Below are positions 5,197-62,000 of a stretch of 64,000 nucleotides of DNA, piece by piece. The stretch lies in assembly GCA_020719005.1 (NCBI GenBank), contig DYQZ01000001.1:5779-69778 (forward strand), in the 5' to 3' direction. The stretch's first letter is position 1, and each line of letters opens with the position of its first letter. The translations under genes and the position numbers were made by a program. This DNA comes from Candidatus Omnitrophus sp. Its GTDB lineage: Bacteria > Omnitrophota > Gorgyraeia > Zapsychrales > Fredricksoniimonadaceae. The notes below the pieces were generated by a model. The model ran no database searches and had not been told where the DNA came from. It saw only the letters and a program-made list of their open reading frames with translations.

Positions 5197-5199
5197 GAT

Positions 5200-6673: not shown

Positions 6674-6677
6674 TACC

Positions 6678-7094: not shown

Positions 7095-7106
7095 AAGAAA
7101 GAGCGT

Positions 7107-8027
7107 ATGGAACAAAAAGTCTTTTTACGTCGTGGTTTTACATTGATCGAACTGGCGATCGTGTTGTGTGTGAGCGCGATGCTCGCCGGGGCGCTGGTGC
7201 CGTCATTCGTTAAGAGTGCGCATATTGAGGCGGCACGTAAGACAGCGGCTGAAATGACGCTCCTTAAAGAAGCGGCACAACATTATTTCTTGAAGAATGC
7301 CGCATGGCCCGAGGATCTTGAAGCGCTGCGCGCATCGGGGGATATTGACGAGCGTTGGCCTGGAAGAAATCCTTTTGGAGATCTTTATGTTGTAACGCCG
7401 GACGTGGGGGGCCTTGTTCTATCAACAAAAGTTCCGTCGGCAATGGGGGATGTGGTGACGGGGGCTCTTGCGATGTCGGTCCAACAAGACGGAGAGGTGT
7501 CTTTACGCGTGACGTCTTCTCTCGATGGAGCGGGTGTGCCGGTGGGCGCGCTTTTGACTTGGCCTTCGGAGGATATTCCCGAGGGATGGGTTTTGTGTGA
7601 CGGCCGGGCGTTAGAACGCGCGGCATATTCGGCACTGTTTGCGCTGCTCGGCGTAAGTTATGGCGTTGGAGACGGAGTCACAACATTCAATGTGCCCGAC
7701 CTGCGCGGGCGTATTCCCGTCGGCTTGGATAATATGGGTGGCAGTGCGGCAAATGTGGTAAGCGGTCCATTGGCACGGACCCTCGGTGGAAAATATGGAG
7801 AAGAATCCCATGCGCTTACAGTGACAGAGATGCCGTCCCATAATCATTATGGATTCGGTGAAAATATTCCCCGCTGGCCGTATGGGACCTCCGGGCCGAA
7901 TAATAATCAAGGCCCTCCTCACGCTGATTATGACAATTATTTGCTCGGCACAACATTCTCCGGCGGAAACGCGTCGCACAATAATCTTCAACCTTCGATC
8001 GCCTTGTATTGGATGATCAAGACATGA
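7107..8027 (+). CDS. Prepilin-type pilin fused to a C-terminal phage tail-collar (Collar/MdpB-like) domain
   Basis: The N-terminus MEQKVFLRRGFTLIELAIVLCVSAMLAGALV is a G|FTLIEL class III signal peptide. The C-terminal half reads LTWPSEDIPEGWVLCDGRALERAAYSALFALLGVSYGVGDGVTTFNVPDLRGRIPVG...GEESHALTVTEMPSHNH. This matches the phage tail collar domain consensus (GW..CDG..L....Y..LF..LG..YG.GDG.TTF.LPDLRGR ... H.LT..E.P.H.H). A purine-rich SD-like stretch (AAAGAAAGAG) precedes the ATG. Confidence 0.7.
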   Translation: MEQKVFLRRGFTLIELAIVLCVSAMLAGALVPSFVKSAHIEAARKTAAEMTLLKEAAQHYFLKNAAWPEDLEALRASGDIDERWPGRNPFGDLYVVTPDVGGLVLSTKVPSAMGDVVTGALAMSVQQDGEVSLRVTSSLDGAGVPVGALLTWPSEDIPEGWVLCDGRALERAAYSALFALLGVSYGVGDGVTTFNVPDLRGRIPVGLDNMGGSAANVVSGPLARTLGGKYGEESHALTVTEMPSHNHYGFGENIPRWPYGTSGPNNNQGPPHADYDNYLLGTTFSGGNASHNNLQPSIALYWMIKT

Positions 8028-8908
8028 AATATATCCGATATCTTAGCTTGGTAGCATTGATCGTTTTTCATTGTTCTGCGTGGGCGATCGCAGCAAGGGC
8101 CGCGTCCATGATGACGCTCGCCGCCAAGGCAGATTGGTCGTGTGTGGAGTTCAAGACGCTTGGGCCGTGTTATCGAAAAACACTTCCCTACGTTGGGGTC
8201 AAGATCCGATATCGTCAGCCCGTATTATTGGTTGAGACGGTAAAGATCCCCGGAGATACGGTGATCAATGAAATGCGCGTGTTTCTGGGCGCACGATTAA
8301 AACAAAACGCGCGGGCGGCTATGAAACAGAGGACTGGGGTTGATGGCGATCCGTCCTCCGGCGGTGTCTTTAATGGCGACGGGACCGCCTTGTCGATGAA
8401 TGAAGCGCACGTATTCTCGTTCCCGTTGACAGATGTTTTCTCCACCGTTGTCGTAGCCCCTTGCGAAGGCGCGCCGGATTTAGCCGGGCCTATTGGTTAT
8501 ATCAGTGAGCTCGACGCAAAAGAGTGGCGCACGGGTGAAACGGAACAGCGGTTTTGCGGGGATCAGAATGGTGTATGGCCTTTGCCCGGGACATGGCTTG
8601 GCACATGGGGCCCGATCTATCCACGCACGGGCTGGTCGGTGGGAACGACGTCTCCTGTTGCCTCGGCCTTAAGCGCGTATCGGGCGGTCGATATTTCGTC
8701 CATCAAGCCGCAATTGCCGCGTGTTGTATTATCGAAAGTTTTATTCGTGCCGGATCTTTTCTGGGACCGGATGCAGATGGTTTATCCGTCGGCAGGAAAG
8801 TGTATCCGTATCGGTGAGGACCCGCGTTTATGGGAAAACGGAAAGAATTCTTTTGACGGGAAATTTGCATGGATATTCTGGCGAAAAAAAGAGTGTTGTC
8901 TTTTCTGA
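8009..8908 (+). CDS. Hypothetical secreted protein (Cys-containing, Trp/Gly-rich)
   Basis: 299 aa overlapping the previous stop. It has a signal-peptide-like segment MKYIRYLSLVALIVFHCSAWAIAARAAS, so an alternative start is ATG 8024. No recognisable catalytic motifs. Codon usage is consistent with its neighbours. Confidence 0.45.
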   Translation: MDDQDMKYIRYLSLVALIVFHCSAWAIAARAASMMTLAAKADWSCVEFKTLGPCYRKTLPYVGVKIRYRQPVLLVETVKIPGDTVINEMRVFLGARLKQNARAAMKQRTGVDGDPSSGGVFNGDGTALSMNEAHVFSFPLTDVFSTVVVAPCEGAPDLAGPIGYISELDAKEWRTGETEQRFCGDQNGVWPLPGTWLGTWGPIYPRTGWSVGTTSPVASALSAYRAVDISSIKPQLPRVVLSKVLFVPDLFWDRMQMVYPSAGKCIRIGEDPRLWENGKNSFDGKFAWIFWRKKECCLF

Positions 8909-9258
8909 TATCGACGGTAATAGCGTGTCACTTTGCATCATTAGCATGGTCGGGTGTATATGAATTAAGCCGTGTGGATTATTTTAATATATACGAAATT
9001 CGACGAGAGAAAAACGACACGGCTTCGCGGCAGGCATTCTCATCCGATGATCTGTGGGCGGTGGAAATGACCGATAGCGCCGGCCGTTCGTTTTTACAGC
9101 GTCCGCCGGAAGTTGTGATGGAACTGTTGAACGATCCCAATACTTTGAATGGATCGAAATATCTCGCATGGAACGAGGCGCGCATCAAACATTTGGAGCA
9201 GGCGGCGGCGTTGTTGGACGAAATATCAAAAGATCCGTCGAGGAGAACACAAAGGTGA
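8869..9258 (+). CDS. Hypothetical small secreted protein
   Basis: 129 aa with an N-terminal signal-like helix MDILAKKRVLSFLISTVIACHFASLAWSG. It overlaps the previous gene by 40 nt. No known motifs recognised. Confidence 0.4.
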   Translation: MDILAKKRVLSFLISTVIACHFASLAWSGVYELSRVDYFNIYEIRREKNDTASRQAFSSDDLWAVEMTDSAGRSFLQRPPEVVMELLNDPNTLNGSKYLAWNEARIKHLEQAAALLDEISKDPSRRTQR

Positions 9259-9262
9259 TGTG

Positions 9263-10480
9263 ATGACGTGGAAAGCAAAAGCATTGTTCATCGGCGCGGT
9301 GTTGTGGATCATCACCACAGGGGATGCGCCCGCTGATATTTTTGAGCGATACAGCGATCCGTCAATGTTGCGACAAGAGGCGTTGCGACTGGATCGCACA
9401 GGTTATGACGCCACACTCGTCGGCGGCTATATCGGCATTCCTGCGGGTGATGTCCTTTCGCCTTCATCCCGCCGGAACTGGTCGGCGAAAAGCGTTTCTG
9501 ATATTGATCCAGAGGAGGTCTTTGACAAAGATCTCCGGCGAATGATCGAACGCGACCGCAAAAGCACGGTGTCGTATTCGTCGGTGTTGTCTAACAACGC
9601 TCTTTTGTTGATGTCTTATGCCAGTCCCGCCATGGCGGATATTTTAAAACATTACAGAGCATCTTTGTTTGCCCGTATGAACATTGAATACGAGCGTTCA
9701 GCACAAAAAGACAATCCTTCGTCGGCGACGCTCGAGCTTTTCTATCGCGCCTCGCTTGATGCGTGCCTTTATCAGGAAAGGACGCGTGGATTTCTCGGCG
9801 GGCTTGAGGTGTGCAGGAAAGAGCCGCCGCTCGGGCACATCAAAGATCCGACCGGGCAATTTGTCACAACACACAGGCCGTGGGCGATCGTGATGGATGC
9901 GCTGACCCGCGTGGGTTTGAACAATCGCGCGGCGCGTCTGGCTGTTGCCATTGCGGGTGATGTGGTCATTGATCCGCAAGGCATCAACGAAACGGCCCAT
10001 ACACGTACATTTTTTACAGAGACCGAAGCCCGCGCTAAAGAGCAGATGACCGATTGGATCAAAATGCTAAGAAATTTTTCCGAAACAAAGCGCGTCAGTG
10101 ATGTTGAACTCGACATGTTAAGTTGGCCTGGTTTTTCTATAACACGAAATGCGCTGAACGATCTTTTGACCCTCAACGAAACAAAACGGGCTTTGTTCAT
10201 TTCCAGGATGGCGCAGTTGTCCGCGAGCGAGGATGTCAAAAACGACCTTCAGGGAGCGTTAAGGGCTTTAGACAGGGGGATGGCTCGTTCTGGAGCGGAT
10301 GATGTCTTTAAGAGCATCCTAAAGGCAAAGAAAGCGGTATTGATAGGGGTATTGGCAGACAAGAAAGACAAGGATGCTGGTTTTAGGGCATCGGAAGAAC
10401 TTTTTGAGGTTTTGTTAGTGGATGCGGATATTGCCAGAAAGCAAATTCTAACAAGCATGGGTGGCGTTAAAACCGAATGA
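9263..10480 (+). CDS. Hypothetical secreted protein
   Basis: Start chosen at ATG 9263 (AAGGTGA at 9251-9257). The ORF-track start 9149 overlaps the previous gene. The N-terminus MTWKAKALFIGAVLWIITTGDAPA is signal-peptide-like. The ~405-aa mostly helical body has no recognised motifs. This is the last gene before the intergenic region. Confidence 0.5.
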   Translation: MTWKAKALFIGAVLWIITTGDAPADIFERYSDPSMLRQEALRLDRTGYDATLVGGYIGIPAGDVLSPSSRRNWSAKSVSDIDPEEVFDKDLRRMIERDRKSTVSYSSVLSNNALLLMSYASPAMADILKHYRASLFARMNIEYERSAQKDNPSSATLELFYRASLDACLYQERTRGFLGGLEVCRKEPPLGHIKDPTGQFVTTHRPWAIVMDALTRVGLNNRAARLAVAIAGDVVIDPQGINETAHTRTFFTETEARAKEQMTDWIKMLRNFSETKRVSDVELDMLSWPGFSITRNALNDLLTLNETKRALFISRMAQLSASEDVKNDLQGALRALDRGMARSGADDVFKSILKAKKAVLIGVLADKKDKDAGFRASEELFEVLLVDADIARKQILTSMGGVKTE

Positions 10481-11002: not shown

Positions 11003-11068
11003 CTTCATGTCGTCCTTGGTGGGACGATAGATATGTTTCATGAATAAACCCGTATCAAATGGGAAAAC

Positions 11069-17000: not shown

Positions 17001-20000
17001 ATGGTGAGGCTGTGCATGCCACGGTGGCAACGCATCAAGATGGCACATCTTCTATCTTAGAAGCGCCCCTTGATTATGCGCGTCGTCAAGGAAAAGATAA
17101 TGGAATTGTTCTTGGCACAGATCCCAACATTCAAGTCAGGCAACAAAAACCACAAACTGTTTTTCAAGGCGATAGTTTTGTCAATAAGAATGTCGAGGCA
17201 AAAGTAGAAACCTTGGCTGATTTTGCATTTGCGCGAAACATGGAAGATAAGGATACTTTAGGTGGTTTCATTGAAAATCGTAATCCTTTGACAGTTAAAC
17301 AAAAGGAATTTGTTTTTCAGCCAGCCGGTATTTCAACTAAAGAATCTGAAGTCCCTGTTGAGGTAGTTGCAAAGAAAGAAGATGTTCTTAATAGCAATAT
17401 TATTGTTGTTACGGCTTCTCGTAATCCAGAGGCATCATCTGCAGGCCAACTCACAAGCGCATTAGCTGGAGGAGATTTTATTCTTTCGGCTGAAGGGGAA
17501 GAAGACACCCTTGAGTTTAACGCTTCTCAAAGCGGGCTTTCATTAGGATTGGGTGAAGGAACAAATATCCGCGTTACCAAAAGTGTTCTGAATGCCGGAA
17601 CGTTCCAGTTTGGATCAAGAAATCAAGACGGTACGTTTCAGGATGTTCACACACTCAGCGCTCAAGATAAAGGCGCAACATTATCCACCGATAATCTTAC
17701 TATTAGTGTTGATAAGCAGGGTCTTGCGTTTAAGAATGCTGCTGATGGTGTGTTGTTGGATTCAGTTGTCTCTAAAGCCGGGTCTGTGGAGGCGAATAAA
17801 GGCATTTCGATGGTCTTTAACAATGATGAACAAGGGAAAAAAGTTAAGGGCTGGATCCAGGCTGATATGGCGGGCAACCGAGTATTAAATGATCAGGGCG
17901 CATGGATCATACCGATGGATATGATGGATGGAAGTGTTGATGGAACAGGAAGCGGTCTTATTGTGACCCATGTTAATGGTCAAGGTTTTCGTTATGCTGA
18001 TATTGTTGGCATGAATGCGGTTTATGATAAAGATGTCGAGGCTGATGACCGGACAAATGATGATACCTGGGCCTTTAAATTACAAGGAAAGAATTTTGAG
18101 CCCGCTTCTGCAGAAGGGGCAGCGCAACAAGGGCCGACCGTTGAGCCAAAAGCCAGAAGTCTGCAACAAGCCCAGCTTCATGCGACTGAAGAAGTGGGGC
18201 GTGGGATTGTTGAACAAGATAGTTCTGCCAATGTTGCTAATGATGTGGCAATCGTTAAAGGACATAAAGGGCTTATTAATACGCCCATAGCCCAACGTTT
18301 ATTAAACACAGATAACATTAGTTACAATTTAACGTATGGTGGTGTGAGCAAAGATGGCGAGATCGTCGTTGGCTCTACCGCTGGTTTAGGCAACAGTGCA
18401 TCGATCGAGCATGTGAATACGAAGATCAACAAAAATGACAATAGGACAATCGAAACAAGAGCTGTTTCATTGATTGGGGCTACAAAGTCCGAAGAATCTA
18501 TCGTAGGACAGGCTATGGGGAAAGTTGACGGTATTTGGAAACGGGGCGGAACATATAAAGAAACACCTAGTGATACAACGACTTATTTCTTTGGCGAGAA
18601 TGAGCTTAAAGATGCTAAGGGTAAAGACAAAGCCAAGATCGCAGGTATTCAGCCGTCAGTAAAAGATACAAATCGCTATTTACATCGGGCTGTTGAAATT
18701 AATGGTTTGTTTGTGATGTCAAAAGTGACAGGAGATCAAGGGGCAGATGTTGTTTGGAATGATGAGTTTGAAAAAGTGATCGCAGGCACTTCAAAAGATG
18801 GAAGATTTTATACAACGGTTGATGAAAAAACGAAAGAAAGAAAAGTTTTTGATGTTGAATCAGGGCTTTTGGTAACGCTTCAGATCGGACAAGATGATAA
18901 AAAGACTATAACAAAGAAACAAGAAATAATAAATCCAATAACGAAGAAGCTTGAAAAGGTTGACGTAGTTGAAACGATCGAGTTTGAGAATAAACACGAA
19001 GTATTACGTACAGGGACGTATGGTTTAGTAAATTATGACACATATGAAACAAAAAAGAGCGCGACCCCTGAAGTTAGCAAAGTGATTGTTTGGGACGGTG
19101 TTGAATATAATATGATCACATATCTTGCTGGAGACCGGCAGATTGTGAAGCTTGTGAATACTAAGATGGAATATGATGTTTTTGATTCGTTAGCAAGAAC
19201 AGATGTTGGTGCTTCTATTGCTGGATATTTTGTTCCTAATGCAAATATGCAAGATGTGCAACGCGTTGCAACAAGTAATCAAAAAGCAAAACAGGAGCAA
19301 AATGTTTTTGTTTTTGAAGTAAATAAAGAAGGTACGTGGGCGCCGTTAAAGATAGACCTTGGTGGCGAATATAGCGCCCCATTATCCAAAGATACGCAAC
19401 TTTGGATCGATCAGAAAACGGGCGTGGTTTCGTTTGGCCCAGTAAAGAATGCTGATGGCAATGTAGGTAAAAATGATTATTTGGTGGTATCTCATCATGA
19501 CGTGGTTACAAAGAAGTATTCTGGCTGGTCGAAGTGGATGGCTAGAAGAAATGTGGGTGGGTTTCTTGATGGTTCGGATTTTTCAACCACATTGAGCACA
19601 TCATTGGCCGCAAAAGGTCATACGGCTTGGTCAGAAGTGTTGGCTCCGAGTAATACGAGTGGGCTTAATGGAGTGGCCACGGTTGCGACTATTCCTCTTA
19701 TTGCTGCAGGCACAGCATTAAGAGTGGCTCAGGCTGGCGGTATTGTGTTGAAGACAAGCCAGACTATTGGAGCTGCGAGTAAGATTTTGAATGTTGCGAA
19801 AGCTACAGGGGATGCGTTCTGGATTGGGAATGCTGTTGTAACGAGCACGGGAATTCTTCGCGGACAGTCTTTCAGTGATGCGACAGCGACTGGTTTTTCT
19901 TCTGGTTTGTCTGCTGCGAAATTGAATTTAGGCATTACGGCTCTTGGGTCTGTGGCTAATGGGCTAAATTCGGCATTGTTAGCTAGTAAGACCGTGAAAA

Positions 20001-35000: not shown

Positions 35001-38000
35001 CTAACAAACTCGCTCAGGACAATGAGAGCATCGCAGTTAATGAAGTACCGTATCAAGTAGCAAAGAACACCGTAGTACAGAGTAATGTGGTTGTGAATAA
35101 TGCCAGAACATTAGCGCTTGGCAATACTGTCGATCGTATCAACTGTTCTGTGTTCCGTGGGGACCTTTCTACGGATCTGAAGGTGAATGAAGCTCCGATG
35201 ACGACTGGTCGCAAGGCTGGCCATCATCAAACAGCCGAAGCTGTGGTTCTGGACGTGTGCCCGATCAACGGCACAATGAACGGTAGCCGCAACCTGAGCG
35301 CTGGCGATCTGAAGACAGGGTTCGTGTGGACTGTGTCTGACGAGGAGAAAGCGCGGAAGGAACAGGTCAAGCTCGCCCTCAGTGTGAATACGGGGGTGCG
35401 TAAGATCAGCTCTGACAGGGGTGTGCACGGGAGAAGTGTGCAGACTGCCGCAGGTAGTAATGCTGTAAATGCGTCCACGGGCGAAGAGCCTGCGGGTGAC
35501 ATCTGGGGTGTGGAAGGTGTGTCTGGCCAAACTGAAGTAACACAAGCCAGCACAGGATCTAACATCGTCGCGTTGGAAGGTGTAAGTGAGAGAGCTCTGA
35601 CCCTGGGAACTGGATCTGCCAATGCCGCCGCGAACGGCAAAACTGAAGGTGCTAGGACTGTGACCTCGAATAAAGAGGAAAGCAGGATTGGTGCTGGAAG
35701 TGACGTTCGTGAAGCTTCTAGTAGTGTGGCTGCGGGAACACAAGAGATACCGACTGCCTCGACTTCTGATGTCAAGAAAGAAGAGGGAACAGCCGGGATG
35801 GGTGTTTTCCCGAGCACACAATATAATCCCAATATAGATAAAAAAGATTTTGGTTCGTCACGGTGGAATGGCTTCGTCAGTGGAGTGATACTGATGCTTG
35901 CCGCAATTGGCACCCTGTGTGTCAAATTCCCCAGAGGCCAAGCGAATGGAGCCCACTCCGCTTCGCGTGCAGATGTTCTGCATCGTCTGGCCTCTTCTTT
36001 CTTTAAAGCTACAAGCCTGCTGGTTGCGGGGCTTGCTTCCTTCTTTATGGGTACGGCTGAAGCGCAGATGGTGCCGATGACGGGTGTATCGAATGTGCCG
36101 GTGATGGTGAAACAGGTGGTTGCGCCGCTTCAGATCGTTACAACGAATGTGGGCGGGTATAAGGCGCGTATCGTGAATTTTGAGCCGTCGCAGTATACGA
36201 TCCATGTTGAGACGAATGCTGATCCTAAGGCGTCGGCGGTCATTAATGGCGGGTATTTTGATAAGGACCGCAAGTCGGTTGGTTTGGTGAAGTGTGATGG
36301 CACGATCATTTCTGATTTTAATAAGAATGGTGAAGAATTCAATGCATCGGCTGGTGCGATATTATTTGCCGGGAAACAGGATGCCAGGATCGTGCCGGCT
36401 TCTGGTGCCGTGGCGCAGATGATCCTTACGAAGACAAATATTTTGAATGTATTGCAGGCTGGGCCGCTTGTGATGAGCAATGGTCAGCTTAAGATCACGC
36501 CTGAGAAACATCAAATTGATAATGGTGCGCGGAATTTCCTGGCGCGTCATCAGAACGGGTCGTGGAGCCTGGTTTATGTTAAGGGCGCTTTTTATGGTCA
36601 GAAGGGGCCGACGCTCGCAGAGATGGCCAAGTTCTTTAAGGATGGCGGGTATCAGGATGTGATGACGCTTGATGGCGGGATGCGCGGGTTCTTGGCGGTG
36701 AAGGATAGTGGAAATGAGAAGACGCGTCGCTGGACAGGGTTATCGAAGCCGGTGACGGTGTTGAGCGTTGTGCCTGTGGAAGGGGCCAGCGGCAATGATC
36801 CGATCTCAGTGGAGGTTAATGGGAAGACGAAGGTCGCGGGTTGGCTGGCTCTGATGGGCGCTGGTTTGGTGATGGGCTTCTTTGCGATGAGGAAGTTCTT
36901 CGGGATGATGTTCTTCGGTACGTTGGCTGGTTCGCGGAAGATCTTTAAGGGAACAAAGCGGTATGCCGGGAAGTTGGGGATGGGGATCGCGTTGGCGGCG
37001 GTGCTTTTTGGTGGAGTGAAGACGGCGAGGGCGGATGAGGATACGGGGCATGTGAATTCGATCAGCTATGTGCAGGCTGTTAATGCACAGCATTTGGATC
37101 TGCAGGATGAGGACACAAAGACGCCCGACTTAGTTGGGCCGGATCCTGAAGATCAGGCGGATGAAGAGACCCCTGCGGTTCAGCCTGTGAAAAAGACCCT
37201 TGAAGAAAAGAACAAGCATCTTGTTTCTGAGATCAAGAGGACCAATTTGGCAGAGACACGGTCGCAATATTATGGCCCGTGGGGCGTGGGTGTTGGGGTT
37301 GCATTGGATTATCAATATCCTTTCTTCTCAAAGGCAATGGGGGATCTGACCGAGGGAGTTTCCGGGGTTGCGATGATCAATTATCCCGGCAAGACCTGGC
37401 ATGAGATCTATCTTGGAGCGCAGGGCGTGGCTCAATGGGGTTCTCAAACCGTGGTTGGTAAAACGGTCGGGACAGGCTTCTTTGTTGATAATGTTTTGCA
37501 GAAGGGGAATACGGTTGAGCTTTATAACAATCGCGGGTTGGGTAAGGTATTTCGTTGCGACAAGTCTTGGTTCAAGAAGATCTTTAATACATTTGTATAT
37601 AACTGGACCAAGGTGGAGACATACGATCAGAATAATCAAAAAGATATAGATACGGTCCGTGATATTGGTTTGGTCAAGGTGGCGCGTTCTGTGCCGACGT
37701 ACGGTAATAAGGCGACATTTAATACTATTCCGTGGTTCTTTAAATTCTTCGGTCCGATCAATGTGCTTATTCCTCTTGATGAAGATGGGCAGCAGGTTGA
37801 ATACGGGATCTATCAGCAGGCGATGGAGTATCGCGCGAACATCAACACAAATAATAATGATATCTATTATGAGACATTCAAGGTTGAGGATCCGAATGCG
37901 TTTTATGTGCAGTTGAAGAATAAAGGTTTTGAACAGGTCAAGAACCCGGCGGAGTATCGCGCTAAGGGCAAGATGATCTTTTATAAGGGTGAGCAAAAAG

Positions 38001-44000: not shown

Positions 44001-47000
44001 CACTTATCAAGGGTTGGATCATGTTTCGCGCGGATGGGTATTTGAAGACGCTTGAAGAAGCGGAGATCGCCGGTGAGTCAACGATGAGCGCGTTCCTTGA
44101 GTTTCGCGGAAAGACCAAGGAAGAGATCAAGGCGTTGTTGCCGAAACTTGTGATGTTCGTCCATGTGCATGAAGATATTGATCCTGATCTGGCAGAAAAG
44201 AAATTGAAAGCTGATATCGAGAAAGCAGAAGCGGCTTTAGCGGAAGCGACGGAAGCGGATAAGCCGAAGAAGCAGGCAGAGATTGATGCATTAAAGGCCA
44301 AAAAGGCGTGGGGCGGGACTGAAGCTAAAGAGATCATCGACATGCTCTGTAGCGACGAGCGCGGGTATGTTCTTAATACGTATGGCGATAAGATCATTGT
44401 TTCGACCAAAGATCTTAAAAAAGGAAATAAGATCGAGAATGATGGCCTGGAATTTGATTTCCCGAAAGATCAGGGGGCGCGCTGGACGGTGAAGACAGAC
44501 AAGTGGAGTATTTGCGGCCGGTTCATTGAAGAATATCTCAAGCGCAATGGCAAGTCTGACGCCATGATCTTTAATCTGGACCGAGATCATTTTTATTTTC
44601 CGACGGATTTTCTGGCTGTTCCGCTGGTGGCCGACAAGTTCACACATGATCCGCGCCTGGGGCTTATGACTATTGCGATGGAGATGAAGACGGGTTATGT
44701 CAGCCCGGCGGCAGAAGATCATCGTGTGGCGGAAGATGTCTGGAACTTGCGTACACTTTTTGCTGAGTCTGAGATCGGGACACACGCATTTTATGGTCCT
44801 GGTATTGTGCGTTGGAATGCGATGCGCCGCATGGGGGCGTTCATGTCGAACATTGAGGATACCGGGGGAGCACAGGAGGCGATCATGGTCGGGTATCGTG
44901 CGGAAAATTCACCGCGCATGAGCATTGGCCGCCCGCGTGAGATGATCCCCGGGTCGCTGTTGGCATTCCAGAATCGTTTCGGTGGGCTTGTTATCGACGA
45001 GTTCCTTTCGGTCCACTTCCAGATGACGATGAGCACGGATGAACTTCACTGGACGGAAAAAGCAACGCTTCTGCAGAATTTTGATTTCTATATCAATAAG
45101 CCGCTGGTGCCGCGTTATAACCTGATGATCTTCATCTTTGCGTTCTTCCTGAACTTCACTCCGTTCAGTTCATTGGCGTGGCCGCTGTTGTTCATCGGGA
45201 TCCAGTATATCCTTGCTGAGGCGATCACGGCGGGCGGCGTCAGGATTTATACGTCCAAGTATGGTTTCTGGAGGGGGTATGCGATGTATATGAAGCGGAT
45301 GTGGAGCTTGGTGTTCACATTCGGTTCGCTGGTCCCGCTTCATGATGAGAAGGTGCGCAATGCCCATAAGGGAACTGCGGGTATTTTCTCAAGCGGTGTT
45401 AAGGATATCGTTTATCCGCGCCTGTCTTTCAGTGAACTTTATGATCAGTATCGTACGTCGATCTATTGGGGTCTTCTTCTGGGTGCGATCGCCTTGATGG
45501 CGCCGTTCCATCCGGTGGCGGTGTTGAGCCAGATCTTCTTCTATGTATTCCCGGTCGTGTTCATTTTCGCGCCGTTCATGAAAAATGGTAGATCGAAGCC
45601 GATGGTCTCTGGGTCGATTTTTGGAGCGATCGCGGTAGCGGTGGTTGTTTATTCGCTGGGATATATCACAGCGCCGGTGTTCCTGGCGGCTATGACGGCG
45701 GGGCTGGCGGCCATTATTGTTGCCGGTGTCAAGGCGCAGGAGAAATATACCACCGGCATCACGATGGGGCTTTTGGCCATACCGTATGCCGTATTGGATT
45801 TTATGACGCTGTTCATCCTTAGCAATAGCGACATGCATAAGGATAAGATCAAAGTAGATATCTTTAAGAATGGTTTGGCATTTGTATGGAAGAAGCACGC
45901 TAAGGATTCAAAGCCGATGGCGTGGTATCAGAAGATCGTTAAGAGCAAGAAGCAGACACAGCCTCAAGCGGCTGCCGTGAAGGTGGAGCAGGCCACGGGT
46001 GCTGTGGGCGCTGGTAATGCTCCGGCATTGGATCATGGCAAGGATGGCGTGAAGAAGCAGGAATCTTCCAAAGATAGCAATCCTCCCCGTGCAGGCCCTG
46101 ACGTAAAGTCTTCTAATAAAGTATCAGAAGATCCGAAGAAGTCTCAAGCCCCACCGTCGTTGGCCGCTATTATTGGTCTTGAGATCGCCCGTCGTATTCA
46201 TGCGCGTGAAGTTAAAGAAGCGGAAAAAGTCGCGAAGCAGTCGCAGGCGGTTCAGGCGAGCGGTAAAAAGATCGAAAAGTTCTATCTTCCGACACCTCAA
46301 AAAGAATTTATCAAGCGCATTGAAGAAGCGGCCTTACAAGTGAGCCGTCGGCATGAATATAAGGCGGCATTGGTTAATACGTGGGCGAATAGCGAAGAAG
46401 AATACAAGGCTACGATCGAGAAACTCACCGAAGAATTTTCACTGACTATTTTCCAGAGCATTGCGACAGCTGTTGGTATCGTTTATAGCGACAAGACAAC
46501 CGCCAAAGAATTAGCTGATCAGATCCGAAAGATAGATCTCTCCAAATACAATACTATCGGCAAGCTTGCGATCTACAGCGGCCCGCCTGGCGGAGGCAAG
46601 GGCGCGGTGTGGGAGCGTTTTGAAGCGCTGTATGGCGATATGATACAGAAGTTCACCCTTTTTCATACGCGTAATATCCGTGACGGCGAGACGATGGGGA
46701 AAGAATATCATTACCGCAATCCTGAAGCGTTGAAGAAACTGGAAGCTGAAGGAAAGATCATTACAGCATCTGTCAACGGGCAGTTACAAGGATTGGCGAC
46801 GATTTCTTTCAAGGATGATTATGATTATACGGACCCTCAAAGCGGCAAGAGACATGAAGGATCTTCTGAGGTGGTTGGCCTGGATGCTGTTTTTAATGGC
46901 GTAAAGATCGTTGTTCTTGAATGCGGGTTGGCATGGTTTGAGGCGTTGCATGATAAGTATGGGGACGCGTTGACGAGTATCTTTATATCACCGTTTAGCG

Positions 47001-50000
47001 ATGCAAGCATTGATACGGCTGTAAGTGATATGAAGGTTGTGTTTAAGGCCGCTGTTGGTCTTGAGATCGCCAAGCGTATTCATGCGCGTGAAGGCAAGGA
47101 AGCCAAGGTGGTGTTTGATGAGTCTGATGCGAAGCAGAAAAAAGGCGAGCCGGTAACAAAGTTTTATATTCCAACTCCGCAGAAAGAATTTAATAACCGC
47201 ATTAATGAAGCGGCCCTTCAGGTGAGCCGTCGTCATGAATATCAAAAAGCTCTGGTTAATACGTGGGCCAGCAGTGAAGCTGAATATAAAGCAATGATCG
47301 ATCAGTTGACCGAAGGGTTTGCGCTGACGATCTTCAGGAACATTGCTGATGCTGTAGGTATTGTGTATCAAGAGACAACGACAGCAAAAGAACTGGCTGA
47401 TCAGTTGGGTAATATTGATCTTTCTCAATATGATACGATCGCGAAGTTTGCGATCTTTAGCGGTCCACCCGGCGGCGGTAAAGGTGCTGTGTGGGATCGT
47501 TTTGAAGAGTTGTATGGGAAGATGACAACAAAGTTCGTTTTTTTTCATACACGTAATATCCGCAAGGGCGAGGTGATGGGAAAGAATTATCATTATCGCA
47601 ATCCTGATGCATTAAAGAAGCTGGAAAGTGAAGGCAAGATCATCACCGCTTCTATTAATGGTCAAGCGCAGGGATTGGCGGTAACGAGTTTTGAAGATGA
47701 TTATTCCTATGTTGATCCGCAGTCGAATGAAAAACATGAGGGAAGGGCAAGTGTTGCTTGTTTGGATCAGGTATTTAAGGGCAATAAGATCGTTATCCTT
47801 GAATGTGGTTTAGCCTGGTTCGAGGCGCTCCACAAGAAATATGGAGATGAGCTAACAAGTATTTTCATATCACCCTTCAGTGATCAGGAATTGGCGTGGA
47901 CAGAGATGTCGGTTGAAGATCGCAGGAAGTATGAAGCTTATGATCATAGAATTCTTGAGCGTGCGGCAGCGTTAAATAATAGAAGCGCTGCAATATTAGA
48001 TAGAATTGCGCACCACAAGAAATTTTCACACGATGGTAACGCGTTGCCTTTCTTTGGAACGACGGTGGTTTCTTTTGTTTCAAAGAATTCGGAAGCTTTC
48101 TTACGTTTGGTCGCTTTTCGTGATCGTCTTAAACAGGCTTTAGAGCGGGCTGGTTTGTCTAAATTTATGGCTTGGACGGAAATTGATTCTTTGCATATGA
48201 CGGTATGTGATATTGATAAAGAGCTTTCTGCTGAAGGGTTTGATGAGCATGTGATAAGGCGTAAAGAAGAAGCGCGCGAAGTGTTCAGTAAGATAAAGAA
48301 TATCACACCTGTTTCTGCGCAGATGAAGGGGCTTGGTTATAAGCTGGCCTTAACGGCACATGTTTTATTTAATGACCCCAAAGAGTTGGATAAGATATTT
48401 GAGGTCGAGGATTCTATAAAAAAGGGCACGAGTGAGCCTAAACAACAACGTGATTTCACAGGTCATATTACATTGGGTTATCCTGTTGGTGTGATGACGA
48501 TGGATGAACTGAATAAATTATTTGATATCTTCAAGCAGTTCTCGAACGATGATCTTAGAGATATTGTGTTTGATAATGTCACCTTTACACGATTCAGTAA
48601 TATGAATACATATGGAAGAGAGTTGTCCCTTGACCTTAATTCTGGTGAGATCCTTTCTTATGGTAAAGATCATGAAGTGTTGCTTGATATTTTTAATGGA
48701 GATCACGGCAAGCTTATTCATGCTCTCGGAGTTTGGAAAAAAGAGTTTAAAGATGTTTTAGGTGTCGAGAAGTCTTTTGAACAGTTGACGACTTTTAAAG
48801 ATGATGATCATCCACAAGGAACAGAATATTTACGTATCATTGATGGGCAAGATCAATATACCGGTGAAGTTCGTCCCAGAGATCTTTGTCATGCGCAGGG
48901 CACAGAGCATCGTGCCGTTGCGGTTATTCTTTATGATCGTGAGGGGCGTATTCTGGTGCAGGTGCGCTCGAGAAAGAAGAAGTTCTTTCCTGGCATGAGA
49001 GATGTGTCTGCGGCGGGTCATCTTGCTTTGGAGAAAGAATATTTGGATGGGGCCATTAATGAAACAGAGGAAGATGTCTTTGATAGCCGACATAAGCTTG
49101 ATCCTGATCGTTTTCAATACGTGGGAACATTTCCTGCGCATCATCGAAATGAGAAGATGGGCTTAAACGATAAAGAGATGGTTGTTTTGTATATGTATCA
49201 GGTGAGGGATGAAGAGAAGGCTCGCGTTGCAATTCAGGCATCTGAAGTAGAGGCTGTCGAATGGGTTTCTTTTGAGAAAGAGCTTTCGGATTGGCAGATG
49301 TGGTATACAGCGGTTGGTAATGGACATGAGCAAGGGAAGTTTGCCAATATTCAAGGGATGGCGGTTGGGTATGCCATTCTTGGAATTGATATTCTTGCCA
49401 ATGAACGTATCGTTGAAAAGATGGTGGATGTTGTAAAAAGGGGTCTTTCTATTAATTCCATGGCGTTTGCTGGAGAAAATAAGTTGGTGTCAACGGATAA
49501 ACAGGGTGCTGTTGAGACGCGGGCAGGTCCTGAAGAGATAAAAACACCTGCCAAGACTGCGGCTGAGTCAAGCCGTACGGCGCCACCCGTGGAGAAGGAA
49601 TTGCCTATTGTTCCTGCCTCATGCGTTAATTATTCCGCACGTTATGTTGATCTGCAAAAGATGTTTGAGACGCTTCGTGAATTGTTATCCTTCAAGAGTC
49701 CGACCGGCCAGGAAGGCCAGGTGCGTTCTTATATTGAAGCCTGGTTCCAGGCACAGCATATTCCGGTTACGGTTTTATATAAAGGGGACGCTCCCAAGAA
49801 CCTTGTCGTTGAGCTTGCGGCGACGTCGGGTCAGGAAAGCGTTGGGGTCATTGCGTTCGATGCGCATATGGATATTTCCGATAATAATGCTGCCGACCTG
49901 GTGTTGGATCGGAATGCTCAGAGAGTGATCGCCACAGGTAGGGATAACGGGGCCAATGGTCTTGATGACAAGATCGGTATTGCGGTGATCCTTGAGATGA

Positions 50001-53000
50001 TGCGGGCACTGCAGGAGAAGAATATTCCGCATGGCCGTATCCGATTGTTCTTTACCGCAGAAGAAGAAACTTTTGAACATCGGGGTGCACTTGATATTAA
50101 GACCCAGCACCCAGATCTTTTAAGAGATATTGCTTTGATGATACCTGTCGACGGGCATCGTTTGCAGAAGAATGGCCGATATGAAGATATTTTAAGCGGG
50201 GATGCTGGTTCTTTGGCGGTCATGTTCATTAATCTTGTAGATGGGGCTTTGGAGCGGTTGGTCGTGCTTGACGCCGGGCGCGCGCTTGGTATTGAGCCGG
50301 CAGTCTTTAAACTTAAGGCGAATGCCAGCGGTAATGAAACTATTTGGGGAGCGGCTGGAATGGCTGTGGCACATGTTCGTGCTAATTATGCGACGACAAA
50401 TGACAGGGCTAGTGTTGATCATGCGGATTATGCGGATATTTTGAGTTTAGGTGATTGGCTGGTTGAGATCGCTCGTCGAGGAGTAGAAATGTCAGAAGCC
50501 CAGTTTCTTAACGTCCCCGTCGTTACCCTCAAAGAAGAAACCCGCGTTGCGTTAGATGAGATGCGTGCGGATCATTTGAATAAGACCAAGAACACAACGC
50601 CTGCCCGGTATCGTGCGCTTTCTTCCATTGTTACGACGAGCATTGCCCGTGAACTTAGGAAGCACGCAGATCCTGCCAAGACCGTGATCGTTTTCCCGTG
50701 GCGTTCGGCCATGGCCATGAGCGAAGCGTTTGAGCGTGAAGGGTATCGTTACTTTTGGCACATCGGTGTCAAGCGCGATGAGAAGACGCTTGAGCCGTCG
50801 ATGTATTATAAGGGCAACTGGCGTATGCCGGAGGGTGTTGATGTGGCGGACCTTGAGGTTGTGATCGCGGACCCGATGTTTGCCATCGGCGGAAGTGTTG
50901 CCCTCACGATCGATATCTTGATGAAAGAAGAAGGCATCAAGCCTTCGCAGATCACGGGCGTGCATGTCGTCTCTGTCCCGGAAGGTATCAAGAACATCAC
51001 CGCGAAATATGCGATCAAGCGGATCATCACCGGGTCGCTGGATGAGAAGTTAAATGAGATCGGTTATATCGTTCCTGGCCTCGGTGATTATGGCGACCGT
51101 TATTTTGAAGGCATCAGCTGTGAAGAGGTCCGTCATTGGAGGAATCTGGACATTCTTGACGGGAATGATCTGAAGGCGCTTGAAGGGAAGATATTTGGGG
51201 CTGAGGCAGGGGACGATGTTGTGAAGGCATATAACGGCATTCTCACCCCTGATGAGATCGCGGCTCTTGCGGCGTATAAATCTAATACTGTAAAAGTAGA
51301 ACAGAAGGTGCTCGCCCCGGCGCTGGCCATGATCGACGGTCTGGTTTTTGAATTACCAGAGGCGCGGTGCCTGGATCTTGGTGTGCTCACGCGCAATCTT
51401 GAGGTTTGTTTAATTTCAATGCAGGGAAGGGCTCCTCCGAGTGCCACTATTGAGGACGGCATTCTTTATCTATTTTCATATGAGGATAATAAAATAACGC
51501 CAACGCTTCTGGCGCGCATGATGGTTCATGAAGTTGTTGAGGATCAAGCCCATCGCAGTATTTCAGGAATTTCTAACGAGAGCGCCCATTCTTTGGCCAT
51601 CGATGCCGAGAGATCCTTTTCCGATCTTTTTAATTCCCACGAGGTCTTTGTTGCGGATTATGACGGGACATTGCATAACTTTCAGCAAGGGGTCCCGGGG
51701 AAGGTGCGTCAGGCGCTCATCCATAATGTGCTGAGTTCTGGCCGTCGGCTGGTTATCGCGACTGGGCAGGCCCCGGACACGTTTTATACAAATATTTTTC
51801 CTCAGCTTGATCTTGCCGGGGCTATGCGTTATGACGGTCAGGTCTATATTCTAGGTGAGGTCGGCGGTTGTGCTCGGCTTTTACGTTCTGATAGAACGCT
51901 TGTTGATGATCCGGATCTTTCTTATGCGCCGATGAGTGAGGATTTTCGCTCCGAGGTCGCTCGTCAACTTGCGGGTATTCGCGCTGATCCGGCGATCGGT
52001 CTTTCTGATTGGGAGGTGGGGGTTGTTCAGCGCCATTCCATGATCTCGTTGCAGATACATTCTGAAGCGGCACACCGTAAAGCGCAGATGATCACGGAGC
52101 GTCTGCAGGCGGCTCTTGCAAGCTCGGGTTTTTATGTGACTAATGTGGTGGGTTGGTTCATCGATATTTCTTCAGCCAGCAAGGGCATTGGTGTTAAGCG
52201 ATACCTTACGAAATTCGGGCTTTCCCTTGAGGATACGCTCGTGGCTGGCGATAGCGGTAATGATATTTCCATGCTTGCCTTGGCAAAGGAAGGGGCCCAG
52301 GCGGTTTTTGTCGGATACGACGGGGCGATCTTGCCGTTGGATATCCGTGATAAGCTTGCGTATGTTCCGACGCCTGAAGCATTGGCTGATGTTATTTCTT
52401 CCAGATTTGTTCAAAAAGAGAGTGCCCCCGCTTTGTCGTTGTCTGGTTTTTGTGGCAACTGTACCGAGGCGATCAAGAAGGCATTGCCAGGGCTGGTCAT
52501 GGCCGGTAAGGTTGAGGTTCGGCGCTGTGCAGCGCTCGGCCTGCTTGATCTTGATGGGGACAAGGTTGATTTTCTTGAATTTGATTACAATGAGATCCCT
52601 GAAGCCATCCGTTTCAATGAACTCAGCAATATGCAGGAAGTTGCGATCTTTGCGGCTGAATATTCCAAGCCAGGGCATTTTTCGATCCATGTTTCTTCTG
52701 AAGCCCGCCGTCGATTTGATGCGCTTTTTCCCGTGGAAGATCCTGAGGCACGTAAGACCGCTCTTAAAGTGATCGCGCTTCATGAAAAAGTTGAGCTCGA
52801 CGGGATGAGCCATGCCAATGCCGTAGAATTCCAGAAGACGGTTGAGGGCTATAAGGTAGTTGCCGAACGCCTGGAGCGTTTGCAGTCGCTGGAGCGTGTG
52901 ATCATCCCGCTTGCGCATAACAGTGTTGATGTCTCTAATATCAAAGCCAGGATCGTGTTCGCGGAACGTCACAGTTTGACAGAAGAACAGCGTCAGATCC

Positions 53001-59000: not shown

Positions 59001-62000
59001 TGCTTCCGCTCTTTGGCATTCATGATACGCAGCGCGGCTTTAAATTGTGGCGCAAAGAGATGATCCCGCTTTTTATCAAGTATGCCACCGAACACGGACT
59101 TGCGTTTGATACGGAACTCTTGTTACTTACACGGATGACGGGGAAGAAGATCATAGAAGTGCCGATCGCTTGGTTTGATTCTGCGGAAGCTAGCACGGTC
59201 GCGCTCGGCGTGGAATGGAAGGTCATGTTGCTTGCGGTCATCAAACAGGCGCGTCATTGGCTTAATCCTTTGATGTGGATGAAAGTTCGCTCTGCGATGA
59301 AGGACTCGGCGCGGTCGGTGCCGGATGAGAAGAAGGCATCAGCTTGGGCAGTGGGTCTTGAGATATTGCGTGTGGTCGGGATCTTCGGCTGGAAAATAAA
59401 GAGATTGAGGGTTGAGCACAATGTTACGCTCGCCGTGAATTTCCTGCGGTCGATCGGAGAAGAGGCGCGTGCGAAGGTGATCGAAGAAATGGCGCGTACC
59501 GGGCGTGTGCGGGCAGGTCCGTTCAAAGGGTTTTTGGCAACAACGTATCGCTGTTTGAATGGTAGTGAATATATCCTTCTTTCTGATCTTCCTTTATATG
59601 CCAAGCGTGGCTGGTTAAGTGCATGTGAAATGAATGCGAGTGTTGTGCACGAGAGCGGTGCGCTTTCAGCGTTCAGGCTTTCCCATGAAGATAATGTTAT
59701 TTTTGAGTCATGGTTCCGTCGGGCTTTTAATGTTGCCGCGTTGAAGCCTGTTGAGATCATAGATAATTTTACCGAGACACTGATCGAGCATCAGAGCGCT
59801 TTTGGGACAGGCGTTGTTGATCTGCGTCAGGTGCCGGAGAAAGTGGATGTTATTGTTGTCGGCGATCTGCATGGCCGCATTGATACGCTCGAGTCTATTT
59901 TAGGTCATCGGATCAAACGCGTGGTTGCTTTTCAGAAAGAATTGGAAGAGTCTGTTCTTGAGAGGGTCAGCTATGGACAGGCAGTTCTGCTCTTTTTAGG
60001 GGACGCGGTCCATGCAAGCCCACAGCGTGAGCAGGTGAGCAGGGCCGTTGAACAGGCCGCTTTTCAAAAAGGCAGAACGCTTACGGCATCTGAAAAAGAA
60101 GCCATCATCGCACCGTATTTCATCAATGCCGAAGCTTCTTTCAAGACGATGCAAAGGATCATGACACTTAAGATCATGTATCCGCGGCATGTGTATTATC
60201 TCTTGGGGAATCACGATCTCCTGGATTATCCCTGGGAAAAATTCACCGATGGTGTTGAAATTGATCAGACGAAGAATTATGTAGAGTATTTGCGAAGCGT
60301 TATCGGGGACGCGGGGGTTGAGAAATATAAAGAAGCCATGCGTTTGAGCCCGGTCCTTTTCTTGGGCAGGAATATCGTGGCGGCTCATGCCGGTCCAGTG
60401 AAAGGCCCTTGTTCGCTCGATGAGATCGGTCGGATCAATACGGCCTCGCTCGTCGATACCCGCATGCGGGACCTGTTGTTCAGCCGTTATTACAGGTTGT
60501 CATTAGTTGAGAGCAAAGATTACATGTATGACGAGTCTGATGTTGACGGCTTCTTGCGTGCTATTGGTTATGATCCGAAGATGACATCGTTCATTGTTGG
60601 CGATGCCCCGTTCGCAGGGAGCGCGTTCTATCATCAGGTTTTCTTGAATCATTATGTTGTTGCCGCAGCCAAGCGTGAGGCCGGGTATGCACTTTCCCGT
60701 GGGGGGCGTCTGGAGTTTGTGGTAGTTGAAGAATCTTCTTCTTTCAGGGTGTCCTCCTTTTTGCCCGTGTCTGTTGCAGCAGTGGCGGCATTCTCTCCTC
60801 GGGATATTCATGTACATGATCTGGTGGGTTGGGGTGGGATGCTTGTTGGTACCATGCTCGCGCTATTCTTATTGCGTAGAACAGATCGCCGGGAAGCTGC
60901 GAAAGAGGATCTGCCGAGAGATGGTTTTCGTACTGTTGATGAAGCGGCGTGGTATGCCATGGAGAGCATTAGCGGATCAACCCTTCCAGGATCCAAGGAC
61001 AGCGTTGAATGGGCGGGATGGATATACAAGAACGATGAGGGGACATATGCTTATACGTCCGCCCAGAAAGCAGGTAGAACGGGAGGCATTCTTGAGGGCA
61101 AGCCTAAGAACACAATGGCAGTGTATCATTCGCATTGTGCTTCCGGTCTTTACAGCGAATTCTTTTCTGATATGCAGACAGACCCTGTTACAGGAGAGCG
61201 CTTAGGGGATAAAGATAGCGCGCGTGCGCATCGCATTGATTGTTATGTTGTTACTCCGTCGGGAACAAAAAGGAAATACGAACATTTAGGGGAAGATGTT
61301 TTCGTTCTTTCCAATAAAGGCAAGAGCCAAACAAAAGACATGTTCGCCCGTCTGGATGAGTGGGGTATTGCTGATCCATGGATCGGTTTCTTGATGTCAC
61401 CTCAGGTGTGGATGAGGATGTTCGTCCGCCGGTGGTTGATCATACAGCCGGTCACAGGGGATCAGCATGGCGCTGCGACATCCATACCCCGGCAGATGCT
61501 GTTGGACAAGACAATACAATATAACGAGCGTGACCTGGAGATCTCTTGGAAGGCCAGAGAAGCGTTGATAGGGAAGACCGATCTGCATTGGAAAGATCCG
61601 GTCGTCTTAAGCAAGTCTGCCGCGACGGACGCGCTGATCGATCAGCTTGTTGAGAAGATAAGAGGGCATGAATTTGATGAAGGGGTCCCGTTGGCAGAGA
61701 TCGTTAAGACAAAGGGCAGGATCTTGTGTGAGTCGTTTGAATTCGTGCTGAGGGAGATATTAAAGAACGCTTTTGATGCGTATGCCATGACTGATCTGAA
61801 GTCTGAGACCGTGAAGGGGCCGGTGAGGGTGCGGATCTTTAGGCAGGGAGCTGACCTTGTCGTTGAAGTATCAGATAACGGCGTCGGGTTCGTTGAGGGC
61901 GTGGTCAAGGCAAAGATCTCAGGCAAGATCATTTTTGGCGGTAGAGGCATAGGCCTTTTGCGTTCGAGGATCCTTTGCCAGGTGCGCGGCGGGGATGTAA

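Follow-up and report, generated by a model that had tools for sequence, protein, structure and literature searches.

A DUF1868-type 2H phosphoesterase domain joined to a Nudix domain in a giant multi-enzyme protein of Candidatus Omnitrophus

Giant genes of the Omnitrophota have been reported to encode a C39 peptidase near the N-terminus, to follow a conserved type II secretion-like locus, and to carry NUDIX among their frequent domains (West-Roberts et al. 2023, bioRxiv 10.1101/2023.11.21.568195). Giants of the "Archaeovorin" type are recognized by a length above ~10 thousand amino acids (kaa), a C39 (or S8) peptidase near the N-terminus, many transmembrane helices, and mixed enzyme domains including NUDIX. 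These proteins are poorly understood, and whether their enzymes act inside or outside the cell is openly debated. Here we describe two adjoining enzyme domains, a 2H phosphoesterase and a Nudix domain, in a giant protein of Candidatus Omnitrophus sp. encoded by a 64,000-nt stretch of contig DYQZ01000001.1 (assembly GCA_020719005.1, positions 5,779 to 69,778 of the forward strand; hereafter the window, G+C content 48%). A single stop-free frame on the plus strand runs from nt 11048 (first ATG at nt 11069) beyond the 3' end of the window at nt 64000 and encodes at least 17,651 aa, with Pfam domains along its length, and the two domains lie at aa 12325–12751 of this frame. An earlier note had pointed here to a double H-x-T motif and a Nudix box placed just after a guanylate kinase (GK)-like pair; all three motifs are present in the giant frame, well in excess of chance, profiles for both families match above their cut-offs, and we regard the two domain identities as practically certain.

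The 2H domain, recognized by Pfam, profile, and fold model, occupies nt 47978–48682 on the plus strand (aa 12311–12545). The Pfam profile 2H-phosphodiest (PF08975, DUF1868) matches it with 33.9 bits (cut-off 21, E 3.4e-8) in an alignment spanning only positions 1–60 of the 116 in the profile. Kinship to PF08975 over the full length is shown in that a seven-sequence 2H profile aligns with the whole of Atu0111 from Agrobacterium tumefaciens (PDB 2FSQ, E 3.9e-6) with both motifs in register, and in that a profile search from the 2H relatives recovered 45 stand-alone homologues (~245–300 aa, 28–38% identical to the window domain), 40 of which are annotated as PF08975. A first 2H profile, which had included one paralogue, was swamped by a divergent paralogue family (YHVTVWDG...PHISLGYF), and the rerun without it gave the orthologues. 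Five relatives came from a metagenome scan, two in very large open reading frames (ORFs; L001 and L002), one at the N-terminus of a 1,395-aa protein (L005), and two as stand-alone proteins of ~256 aa (L003 and L004). An index-based homologue search with the joined 2H and Nudix segment of the window returned no match, and none of 44 pattern matches from a genome contig scan with that segment was confirmed.

Members of the 2H superfamily have two H-x-T/S motifs with hydrophobic residues on either side, each borne by a central strand of a pseudo-symmetric, two-lobed alpha+beta fold. The active site of the window 2H domain is intact. The first motif, HMTV (in SLHMTVCD; nt 48194–48205, plus strand, aa 12383–12386), holds His12383 and Thr12385 and is followed by the invariant Cys12387 and Asp12388; the second, HITL (in GHITLGY; nt 48464–48475, plus strand, aa 12473–12476), holds His12473 and is preceded by an invariant Arg-x-Phe-x-Gly. 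Among 41 2H sequences at 26–34% identity the invariant alignment columns (H72, T74, C76, D77, R157, F159, G161, H162, and Y167) comprise both H-x-T/S motifs and their immediate surroundings, and the active-site residues are also retained in the giant-embedded copies of L001, L012, L019, and L022. An AlphaFold2 (AF2) model built from the 41-sequence alignment has a mean pLDDT of 87 and a pTM of 0.84 and places the motifs on strands 72–82 and 162–168, so that the second H-x-T motif lies within the 2H fold, where it aligns with HITLSY of 2FSQ and HITLG of 1VDX. The top 50 Foldseek matches to this model in the PDB are all 2H proteins and include Atu0111, PH0099, AKAP18, plant cyclic phosphodiesterase (CPDase), Escherichia coli LigT, ASCC1, Usb1, drCPDase, and YjcG. 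The domain is thus a member of the 2H superfamily and of the DUF1868/PF08975 family, with the two-histidine constellation preserved. The superfamily had been named correctly beforehand, but LigT, offered as one of its candidate members, is rejected (TIGR02258 12.2 bits, E 0.12, cut-off 65.7), and the Pfam scan of the region reported no match to PF13563 (2_5_RNA_ligase2).

Directly downstream, a helical extension of ~45–55 aa (nt 48683–48808, plus strand; LLDIFNGDHGKLIHALGVWKKEFKDVLG...TTFKDDDHPQG) forms part of the Nudix module and accompanies the Nudix domain also where a 2H domain is absent (P0135, P0136, P0140, P0142, P0143, L018, L026, and L027). Model confidence is low for this extension because the alignment does not cover it. 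The Nudix-fold (alpha/beta/alpha sandwich) domain itself (nt 48809–49318, plus strand, aa 12588–12757), likewise supported by Pfam, profile, and fold model, matches NUDIX PF00293 with 37.2 bits (cut-off 21.1, E 3.6e-9). Among proteins of solved structure, E. coli YfcD is closest in sequence (2FKB, E 2.6e-10); type 1 and type 2 isopentenyl diphosphate (IPP) isomerases and NUDT17 come next. Searched exhaustively with HMMER, 1.84 billion representatives yielded 1,985 Nudix matches at E <= 0.001, and the matches listed were mostly stand-alone Nudix proteins of ~180 aa with the consensus PGxWDxSxAGHxxAGE-x7-RExxEEL. A profile of 60 Nudix homologues plus the window copy aligned over the whole domain with YfcD (1e-26) and with IPP isomerase (IDI; ~1e-23), and the family-profile alignment takes in two N-terminal histidines, Gly-His, and the Asp/Glu-x-Glu strand. 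The AF2 core of the domain (aa 12588–12757) has pLDDT > 90; the best Foldseek match is 2fkb (E 3.8e-13, target-normalised TM-score 0.83), IDI structures come next, and RppH appears only far down the list. The domain is a genuine member of the IDI/YfcD-like clade. Neither of its close families can claim it as an equivalog, however. YfcD, the nearest solved structure, is a different family (NF011922 45.3 bits against a cut-off of 152), and IPP isomerase identity is rejected by score (NF002995 49.2 bits against 127) and by the absence of the catalytic Cys.

The Nudix box is not canonical. The box (AGHLALEKEYLDGAINETEEDV; nt 49013–49078, plus strand, aa 12656–12677) begins 538 nt after the second H-x-T motif and, in an alignment of 103 Nudix modules, is degenerate, reading G-HLALE-K-EYLDGAI-N-E-T-E-E-D-V-F against GX5EX7REUXEEXGU. 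Gly12657, Glu12672, and Glu12675 are retained, whereas Lys12663 replaces the Glu of GX5E, Asn12671 the Arg, Asp12676 the last Glu, and Phe12678 the Gly. The Lys, Asn, and Phe changes are common to the closest giant-protein Nudix copies, which keep E..EE; the Glu-to-Asp change is private to the window. Acidic residues nonetheless stand at three of the four box positions of the window copy, all four invariant residues of the Nudix family are present (His12621, Arg12640, Asp12652, and Glu12733), and so is the Asp12708-x-Glu12710 strand. In a related giant ORF (L001 10883–12181) the 2H domain is followed by two tandem copies of the Nudix module and its helical extension, the second of which has a fuller box (KRELEEEIF) than the window copy.

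Catalysis by IDI depends, in the E. coli enzyme, on Cys67 (motif NSVCGH) and Glu116. The catalytic Cys slot is Ala in the window (SAAGH), against SVCGH of wild-type Salmonella IDI (3HYQ) in the same alignment, and for this reason we do not regard the domain as an isomerase. Metal binding is probably retained, with uncertain activity; the IDI-type His/His/His/Asp/Glu metal site is kept together with the three acidic box positions. Since the metal site is kept but the isomerase Cys is absent, to judge from these residues the most likely activity of the domain is diphosphate hydrolysis, possibly weakened, and not isomerisation.

The 2H domain, helical extension, and Nudix domain recur together. 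P0134 (1,345 aa, contig L012) aligns with window aa 12291–12796 at 43% identity over 525 residues spanning all three parts, and the same block is found in other giant ORFs at 38–44% identity. The order 2H–Nudix–Nudix occurs in L001 (38% identity) and P0138; P0155 is colinear with window aa 9701–11590 and continues with GK-like, Nudix, and 2H domains, the last two being swapped; and in P0137, P0146, and L002 the 2H and Nudix domains are both present, far apart. Adjacency of the two domains is thus recurrent, not obligatory. The flanks differ, with a GK-like pair in the window and a ~140-aa repeated module in L001 and P0134, and because the block is kept while its surroundings change, it behaves as a unit that is very probably inherited as a conserved cassette. 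In L012 (ERZ25039480 contig_46700) the relative with this cassette is broken into many same-strand ORFs, probably by frameshifts in the long-read assembly; further along, its giant gene encodes Glyco_transf_5 and GH57/DUF3536, and two PilZ genes come after it, in line with the PilZ genes described behind giant genes of the Omnitrophota.

Immediately upstream of the cassette, as the earlier note had seen, stand two GK-like P-loop repeats of ~285 aa with a mutual identity of 71% (repeat 1, nt 46166–47017, aa 11707–11990; repeat 2, nt 47045–47908, aa 12000–12287; both on the plus strand). Repeat 2, just upstream of the 2H domain, matches Pfam Guanylate_kin with 29.9 bits (cut-off 25.2) and TIGR03263 with E 2.9e-10 over profile positions 3–75 only, and repeat 1 retains the HTRNIR..GE..G..YHY motif. 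The Ser/Thr of the Walker A motif normally coordinates Mg2+. In both repeats this motif reads GPPGGGKG (nt 46580–46603 and 47462–47485), with Gly in the usual Ser/Thr slot; a GKS Walker A is found in one of three aligned GK-like copies of L001. A genome scan with the GK-like repeat recovered relatives 45–70% identical in 14 loci, most of them titled Candidatus Omnitrophota or Ca. Gygaella and a few Planctomycetes or Nitrospirae, and in related Omnitrophota ORFs the repeats are multiplied up to ~8 times per locus. GK-like repeats are followed by this Nudix module in eight of the 14 (L016, L018, L020, L022, L024, L026, L027, and L028), and two (L019 and L022) carry a 2H domain.

Large-protein relatives join the 2H domain with GDPD, cytidylate kinase, NTP_transf_3, and GT2 domains. 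Several stand-alone DUF1868 orthologues lie in or at the end of sugar-uptake or glycoside-hydrolase operons: in a record named Candidatus Marinimicrobia (L009–L011) the order is MalK-like ATPase, GH63, GH32, 2H, GxGYxYP, and Ham1p-like, and in L032 it is LacI, ABC transporter, and 2H. A LacI-type (Peripla_BP_3) regulator, the DUF1868 2H gene, and the divergent second 2H paralogue form a conserved trio (L003 7580–10438; L030 5756–8596; L031 390–3230); this paralogue belongs to a separate family of at least 88 members. In two contigs (L007 6652–13664 and L008 338–7383) the orthologue P0121 directly follows a TIR-domain gene and precedes a 1,308-aa PPDK_N/PEP-utilizers/Radical_SAM fusion, with an unknown 223-aa gene intervening. 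Other stand-alone orthologues have defence-island neighbours (L013, L030, and L034), standing beside BREX genes and a transposase, a restriction-modification system, or CHAT/UvrD/methylase genes.

The earlier note had placed these domains in a surface or envelope protein and saw in them a hint of extracellular nucleotide, signalling-nucleotide, or RNA-end processing. Hydropathy, charge, and Cys bias point instead to the cytoplasm. About five hydrophobic, transmembrane-like segments at nt 45122–45820 (plus strand, aa 11359–11591), located by a Kyte–Doolittle scan and their flanking charges, form the last strong anchor before the cassette, and the last helix of this cluster is followed by a strongly positive Lys-rich stretch (NSDMHKDKIKVDIFKNGLAFVWKKHAKDSK...KSKK). 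From aa 11592 to ~14757 there is no strong hydrophobic segment, one marginal match lying inside the M20 domain, and because nothing of that kind intervenes the cassette would share a compartment with the GK-like, UPRTase, HAD, and phosphoenolpyruvate (PEP)-utilising domains. A single Cys (aa 6085) occurs in the ~7,460 residues of aa 569–8032 (window nt 12752–35141), against ~3 Cys per 500 aa from aa 11000 onward (compared span aa 11000–17500), a boundary that suggests an exported N-terminal part and a cytoplasmic C-terminal part; the 2H family itself has an invariant Cys next to its first His motif. As the neighbouring domains need ATP, phosphoribosyl pyrophosphate (PRPP), and PEP, and given the Cys distribution and the Lys-rich stretch, the cassette is probably on the cytoplasmic side.

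We picture the giant as a membrane-anchored, multi-enzyme protein of the Omnitrophota type that holds two genuine enzyme domains in this cassette. By analogy with all characterised 2H enzymes, the 2H domain would act on a ribose-like or sugar-like diol, opening a cyclic phosphate or cleaving or transesterifying a phosphodiester, and the Nudix domain, going by Nudix chemistry, would cleave a diphosphate linkage. Seated in the enzyme-rich and probably cytoplasmic C-terminal part beside the GK-like repeats, UPRTase, a Cof-type HAD phosphatase, and a PEP-utilising domain, the pair could open cyclic phosphates or phosphodiesters of small nucleotide or sugar-phosphate esters in the cell, with diphosphate cleavage or re-phosphorylation to follow. 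Small molecules are preferred over RNA ends as substrates because the neighbours include GMP-kinase-like repeats with HTR..R.GE..G..Y, UPRTase, and a sugar-phosphatase-type HAD, because relatives carry GDPD, cytidylate kinase, NTP_transf_3, and GT2, and because orthologues occur in LacI/ABC-uptake/GH63/GH32 operons. To this reading as a whole, a cytoplasmic 2H–Nudix cassette for the processing or salvage of small nucleotides or sugar phosphates, we give an even chance; a salvage role in particular is a more tentative proposal, with extracellular nucleotide processing and RNA ligation less likely than intracellular salvage. It is a long shot that GK-like, 2H, and Nudix domains make up a dedicated mobile Omnitrophota cassette turning cyclic-phosphate or phosphodiester nucleotides of prey or host into reusable nucleotides, with inputs that might be, for example, 2',3'-cyclic nucleoside monophosphates from RNA breakdown or TIR-type cyclic ADP-ribose signals. 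If true, this would give DUF1868 its first substrate and would link giant proteins to nucleotide scavenging or counter-defence.

Several points weigh against the cytoplasmic processing cassette. The Nudix box of the window copy is degenerate (Lys for the GX5E Glu, Asn for Arg, Asp for the last Glu), and Gly in place of the Walker A Ser/Thr means that parts of the cassette may be catalytically weak or dead. Neither the DUF1868 subfamily nor the Nudix subclade has a member with an established substrate: Atu0111 is listed as of "unknown function" (PMC3290555), our literature search found no paper that mentions DUF1868, and that on Atu0111, 2FSQ, mlr3352, and PF08975 turned up only a structural comparison table. 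The 2H domain stands without an adjoining Nudix domain in L019, P0145, P0153, P0161, P0165, P0171, P0190, and P0218, and some stand-alone orthologues adjoin TIR, BREX, or restriction-modification genes. Only a crude hydropathy scan and the biases in charge and Cys content underlie the topology; DeepTMHMM and TMHMM results published on such giants disagree, and the enzymes of one 147-kaa multi-enzyme giant were placed outside the cell by DeepTMHMM.

This last result, together with extracellular prey-directed roles proposed for such giants in the literature, would suit display at the surface or envelope and processing of extracellular nucleotides or prey RNA ends, as would a membrane-anchored protein with many hydrophobic segments encoded behind a secretion/pilus locus. 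We think this very improbable here, given that the Lys-rich segment comes right after the last transmembrane helix before the cassette (positive-inside rule), that Cys is nearly absent from aa 569–8032 and normal around the cassette, with an invariant Cys in the 2H motif, and that the GK-like, UPRTase, PEP-utilizers_C, HATPase_c, and Bac_transf domains need cytoplasmic ATP, PRPP, PEP, or UDP-sugars; no strong hydrophobic segment separates the cassette from the first three. Healing or repair of RNA ends, with the kinase acting on 5'-OH, the 2H domain on 2',3'-cyclic phosphate ends, and the Nudix domain on a 5' pyrophosphate or caps, draws on the succession of a kinase-like and a 2H domain, which resembles the kinase–cyclic phosphodiesterase (CPD) order of Trl1, and on the presence of LigT, Usb1, and ASCC1 among the fold matches. 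In addition, 2H enzymes are the most widespread clean-up route for 2',3'-cyclic phosphate RNA ends (PMC9503650). That explanation is nevertheless unlikely: the repeats match guanylate kinase including the GMP-binding HTR..R.GE..G..Y, which indicates a nucleoside monophosphate kinase, not a polynucleotide kinase; Pfam detects neither a ligase nor a Tpt1/KptA or macro domain along the giant; the 2H domain falls in DUF1868 rather than with LigT; the Nudix domain groups with YfcD and IDI, with RppH remote; and the stand-alone 2H orthologues sit in sugar-uptake operons.

The TIR gene directly before P0121 in two contigs and the BREX, restriction-modification, and CHAT/UvrD/methylase genes near other orthologues would fit a role in degrading NAD-derived or immune signalling nucleotides, in predator–prey or anti-defence conflict, with the Nudix domain cleaving the diphosphate of ADP-ribose; 2H and Nudix enzymes are both known in NAD/ADP-ribose networks (PMC9503650). 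We doubt this role, in that PADLOC matches no defence model to the window cassette or to the stand-alone orthologues, the defence neighbours are inconsistent (only the TIR gene is directly adjacent), and the tight same-strand partners are LacI-type regulators, ABC transporters, and glycoside hydrolases. The nearest structures of the Nudix domain are moreover not of the ADP-ribose pyrophosphatase type, and Pfam finds no TIR, macro, sirtuin, or ART domain in the giant protein. A last explanation is that the domains no longer catalyse and persist as relics or as binding and scaffold modules, in the manner of the MAGUK GK domain and the AKAP18 2H domain, or that the Nudix domain alone is inactive. 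AKAP18, one of the 2H fold matches, has a nucleotide-binding 2H domain solved with 5'-AMP bound. Four fixed positions of the window Nudix box differ from consensus, GKG stands in place of GK[ST] in both GK-like repeats, and amplification of these repeats to ~8 per locus suits a structural role. Such loss of catalysis is improbable all the same, for the 2H catalytic residues show no change in the 41 sequences or in any giant-embedded copy, the four residues invariant in the Nudix family (H, R, D, E) are all present in the window Nudix domain along with three of four acidic box positions, and its close giant homologues keep E..EE. The cytoplasmic 2H–Nudix processing cassette remains the reading we prefer.

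The setting of the cassette is a long succession of enzyme domains, in the Pfam order Peptidase_C39, NAGPA, Guanylate_kin, 2H-phosphodiest, NUDIX, Peptidase_M28, UPRTase, Hydrolase_3, PEP-utilizers_C, Metallophos, HATPase_c, and Bac_transf. The Peptidase_C39 domain lies near the N-terminus (aa 294–372), the Hydrolase_3 region is a Cof-type HAD of the sugar-phosphatase type, and directly downstream of the Nudix domain is an M20/M28-type metallopeptidase or deacylase-like domain (nt 49664–50170, plus strand). A Kyte–Doolittle scan finds ~20 hydrophobic segments along the protein. The NAGPA (phosphodiester glycosidase) domain (~aa 8394–8551) lies between strong hydrophobic helices at 8276–8294 and 8596–8614 (window nt 35873–36889) and resembles a loop exposed at one face of the membrane. 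The two short minus-strand ORFs of the region had no family match, and Rfam found nothing in it. Directly upstream of the giant gene, window nt 251–10480 hold a secretion/pilus-like locus, identified from its translations alone, with ORFs for a GspE-like ATPase (2378–3982), a GspF-like membrane protein (3955–5196), a DUF1016/YhcG-like protein (5200–6252), and several pseudopilin-like proteins with N-terminal hydrophobic helices (6194–8027).

An unannotated ~140-aa module occurs twice in the window (nt 59303–59707 and 62858–63337; aa 16086–16220 and 17271–17430); the module begins RSLPG(D/Q)P and holds RVRAGPxxGFLAT and VHExGA...HE.N; a Pfam search with this "linker" gave nothing significant. 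It is also present in L001, L012, L019, and L022, and in several giant ORFs it directly borders enzyme cassettes (2H alone, 2H–Nudix, or GK repeats). The module may serve as a spacer, for docking, or as a site of proteolytic processing, and the picture that emerges is of enzyme domains travelling as small conserved blocks bounded by a repeated spacer module.

Compared with known systems, the 2H domain comes closest to Atu0111 (2FSQ; PF08975, formerly DUF1868), the best Foldseek match to its model (E 4.5e-9, TM 0.63), at ~20% identity. Atu0111 and the 45 orthologues are stand-alone proteins of ~250 aa, whereas the window copy forms a single domain within a protein exceeding 17,651 aa. The LigT/2',3'-cyclic phosphodiesterases (PH0099 of Pyrococcus horikoshii, 1VDX; E. 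coli LigT, 5LDI; Arabidopsis thaliana CPDase, 1FSI) share the 2H fold and the two-histidine site, but the window domain is ~60 residues longer than this group and has an extra conserved Cys-Asp after motif 1. For the Nudix domain the nearest sequences and structures are E. coli YfcD (2FKB) and type 1 IDI (1HX3, 2I6K), with which it aligns at the N-terminal beta-hairpin, the His..His motif, Gly-His, and the Asp/Glu-x-Glu strand; unlike YfcD, it has a more degenerate Nudix box and an extra N-terminal helical extension of ~45–55 aa and is embedded in a giant protein. The tRNA ligase Trl1 of fungi and plants joins a P-loop kinase and then a 2H cyclic phosphodiesterase in one polypeptide. In the window, by contrast, the kinase resembles guanylate kinase, a ligase domain is missing, and the 2H domain comes from another family. 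The giant protein as a whole has the traits of the "Archaeovorin" type, with its length of at least 17,651 aa, C39 peptidase, ~20 hydrophobic segments, mixed enzymes (NUDIX, HATPase_c, HAD), and GspE, GspF, and pilin genes upstream, and it also fits the "multi-enzyme metabolic cluster" class (Nielsen & Lui 2026, bioRxiv 10.64898/2026.06.07.730766). Neither 2H phosphoesterase nor guanylate kinase occurs in the main texts of these two surveys (10.1101/2023.11.21.568195 and 10.64898/2026.06.07.730766), and the DUF1868 2H domain adds a domain type to those named there. The cassette itself combines domain families that are both known, in a class of giant proteins described before; its main value is that of a well-defined fragment of ~450 aa, suitable for expression, which offers a handle on the chemistry of two uncharacterised subfamilies.

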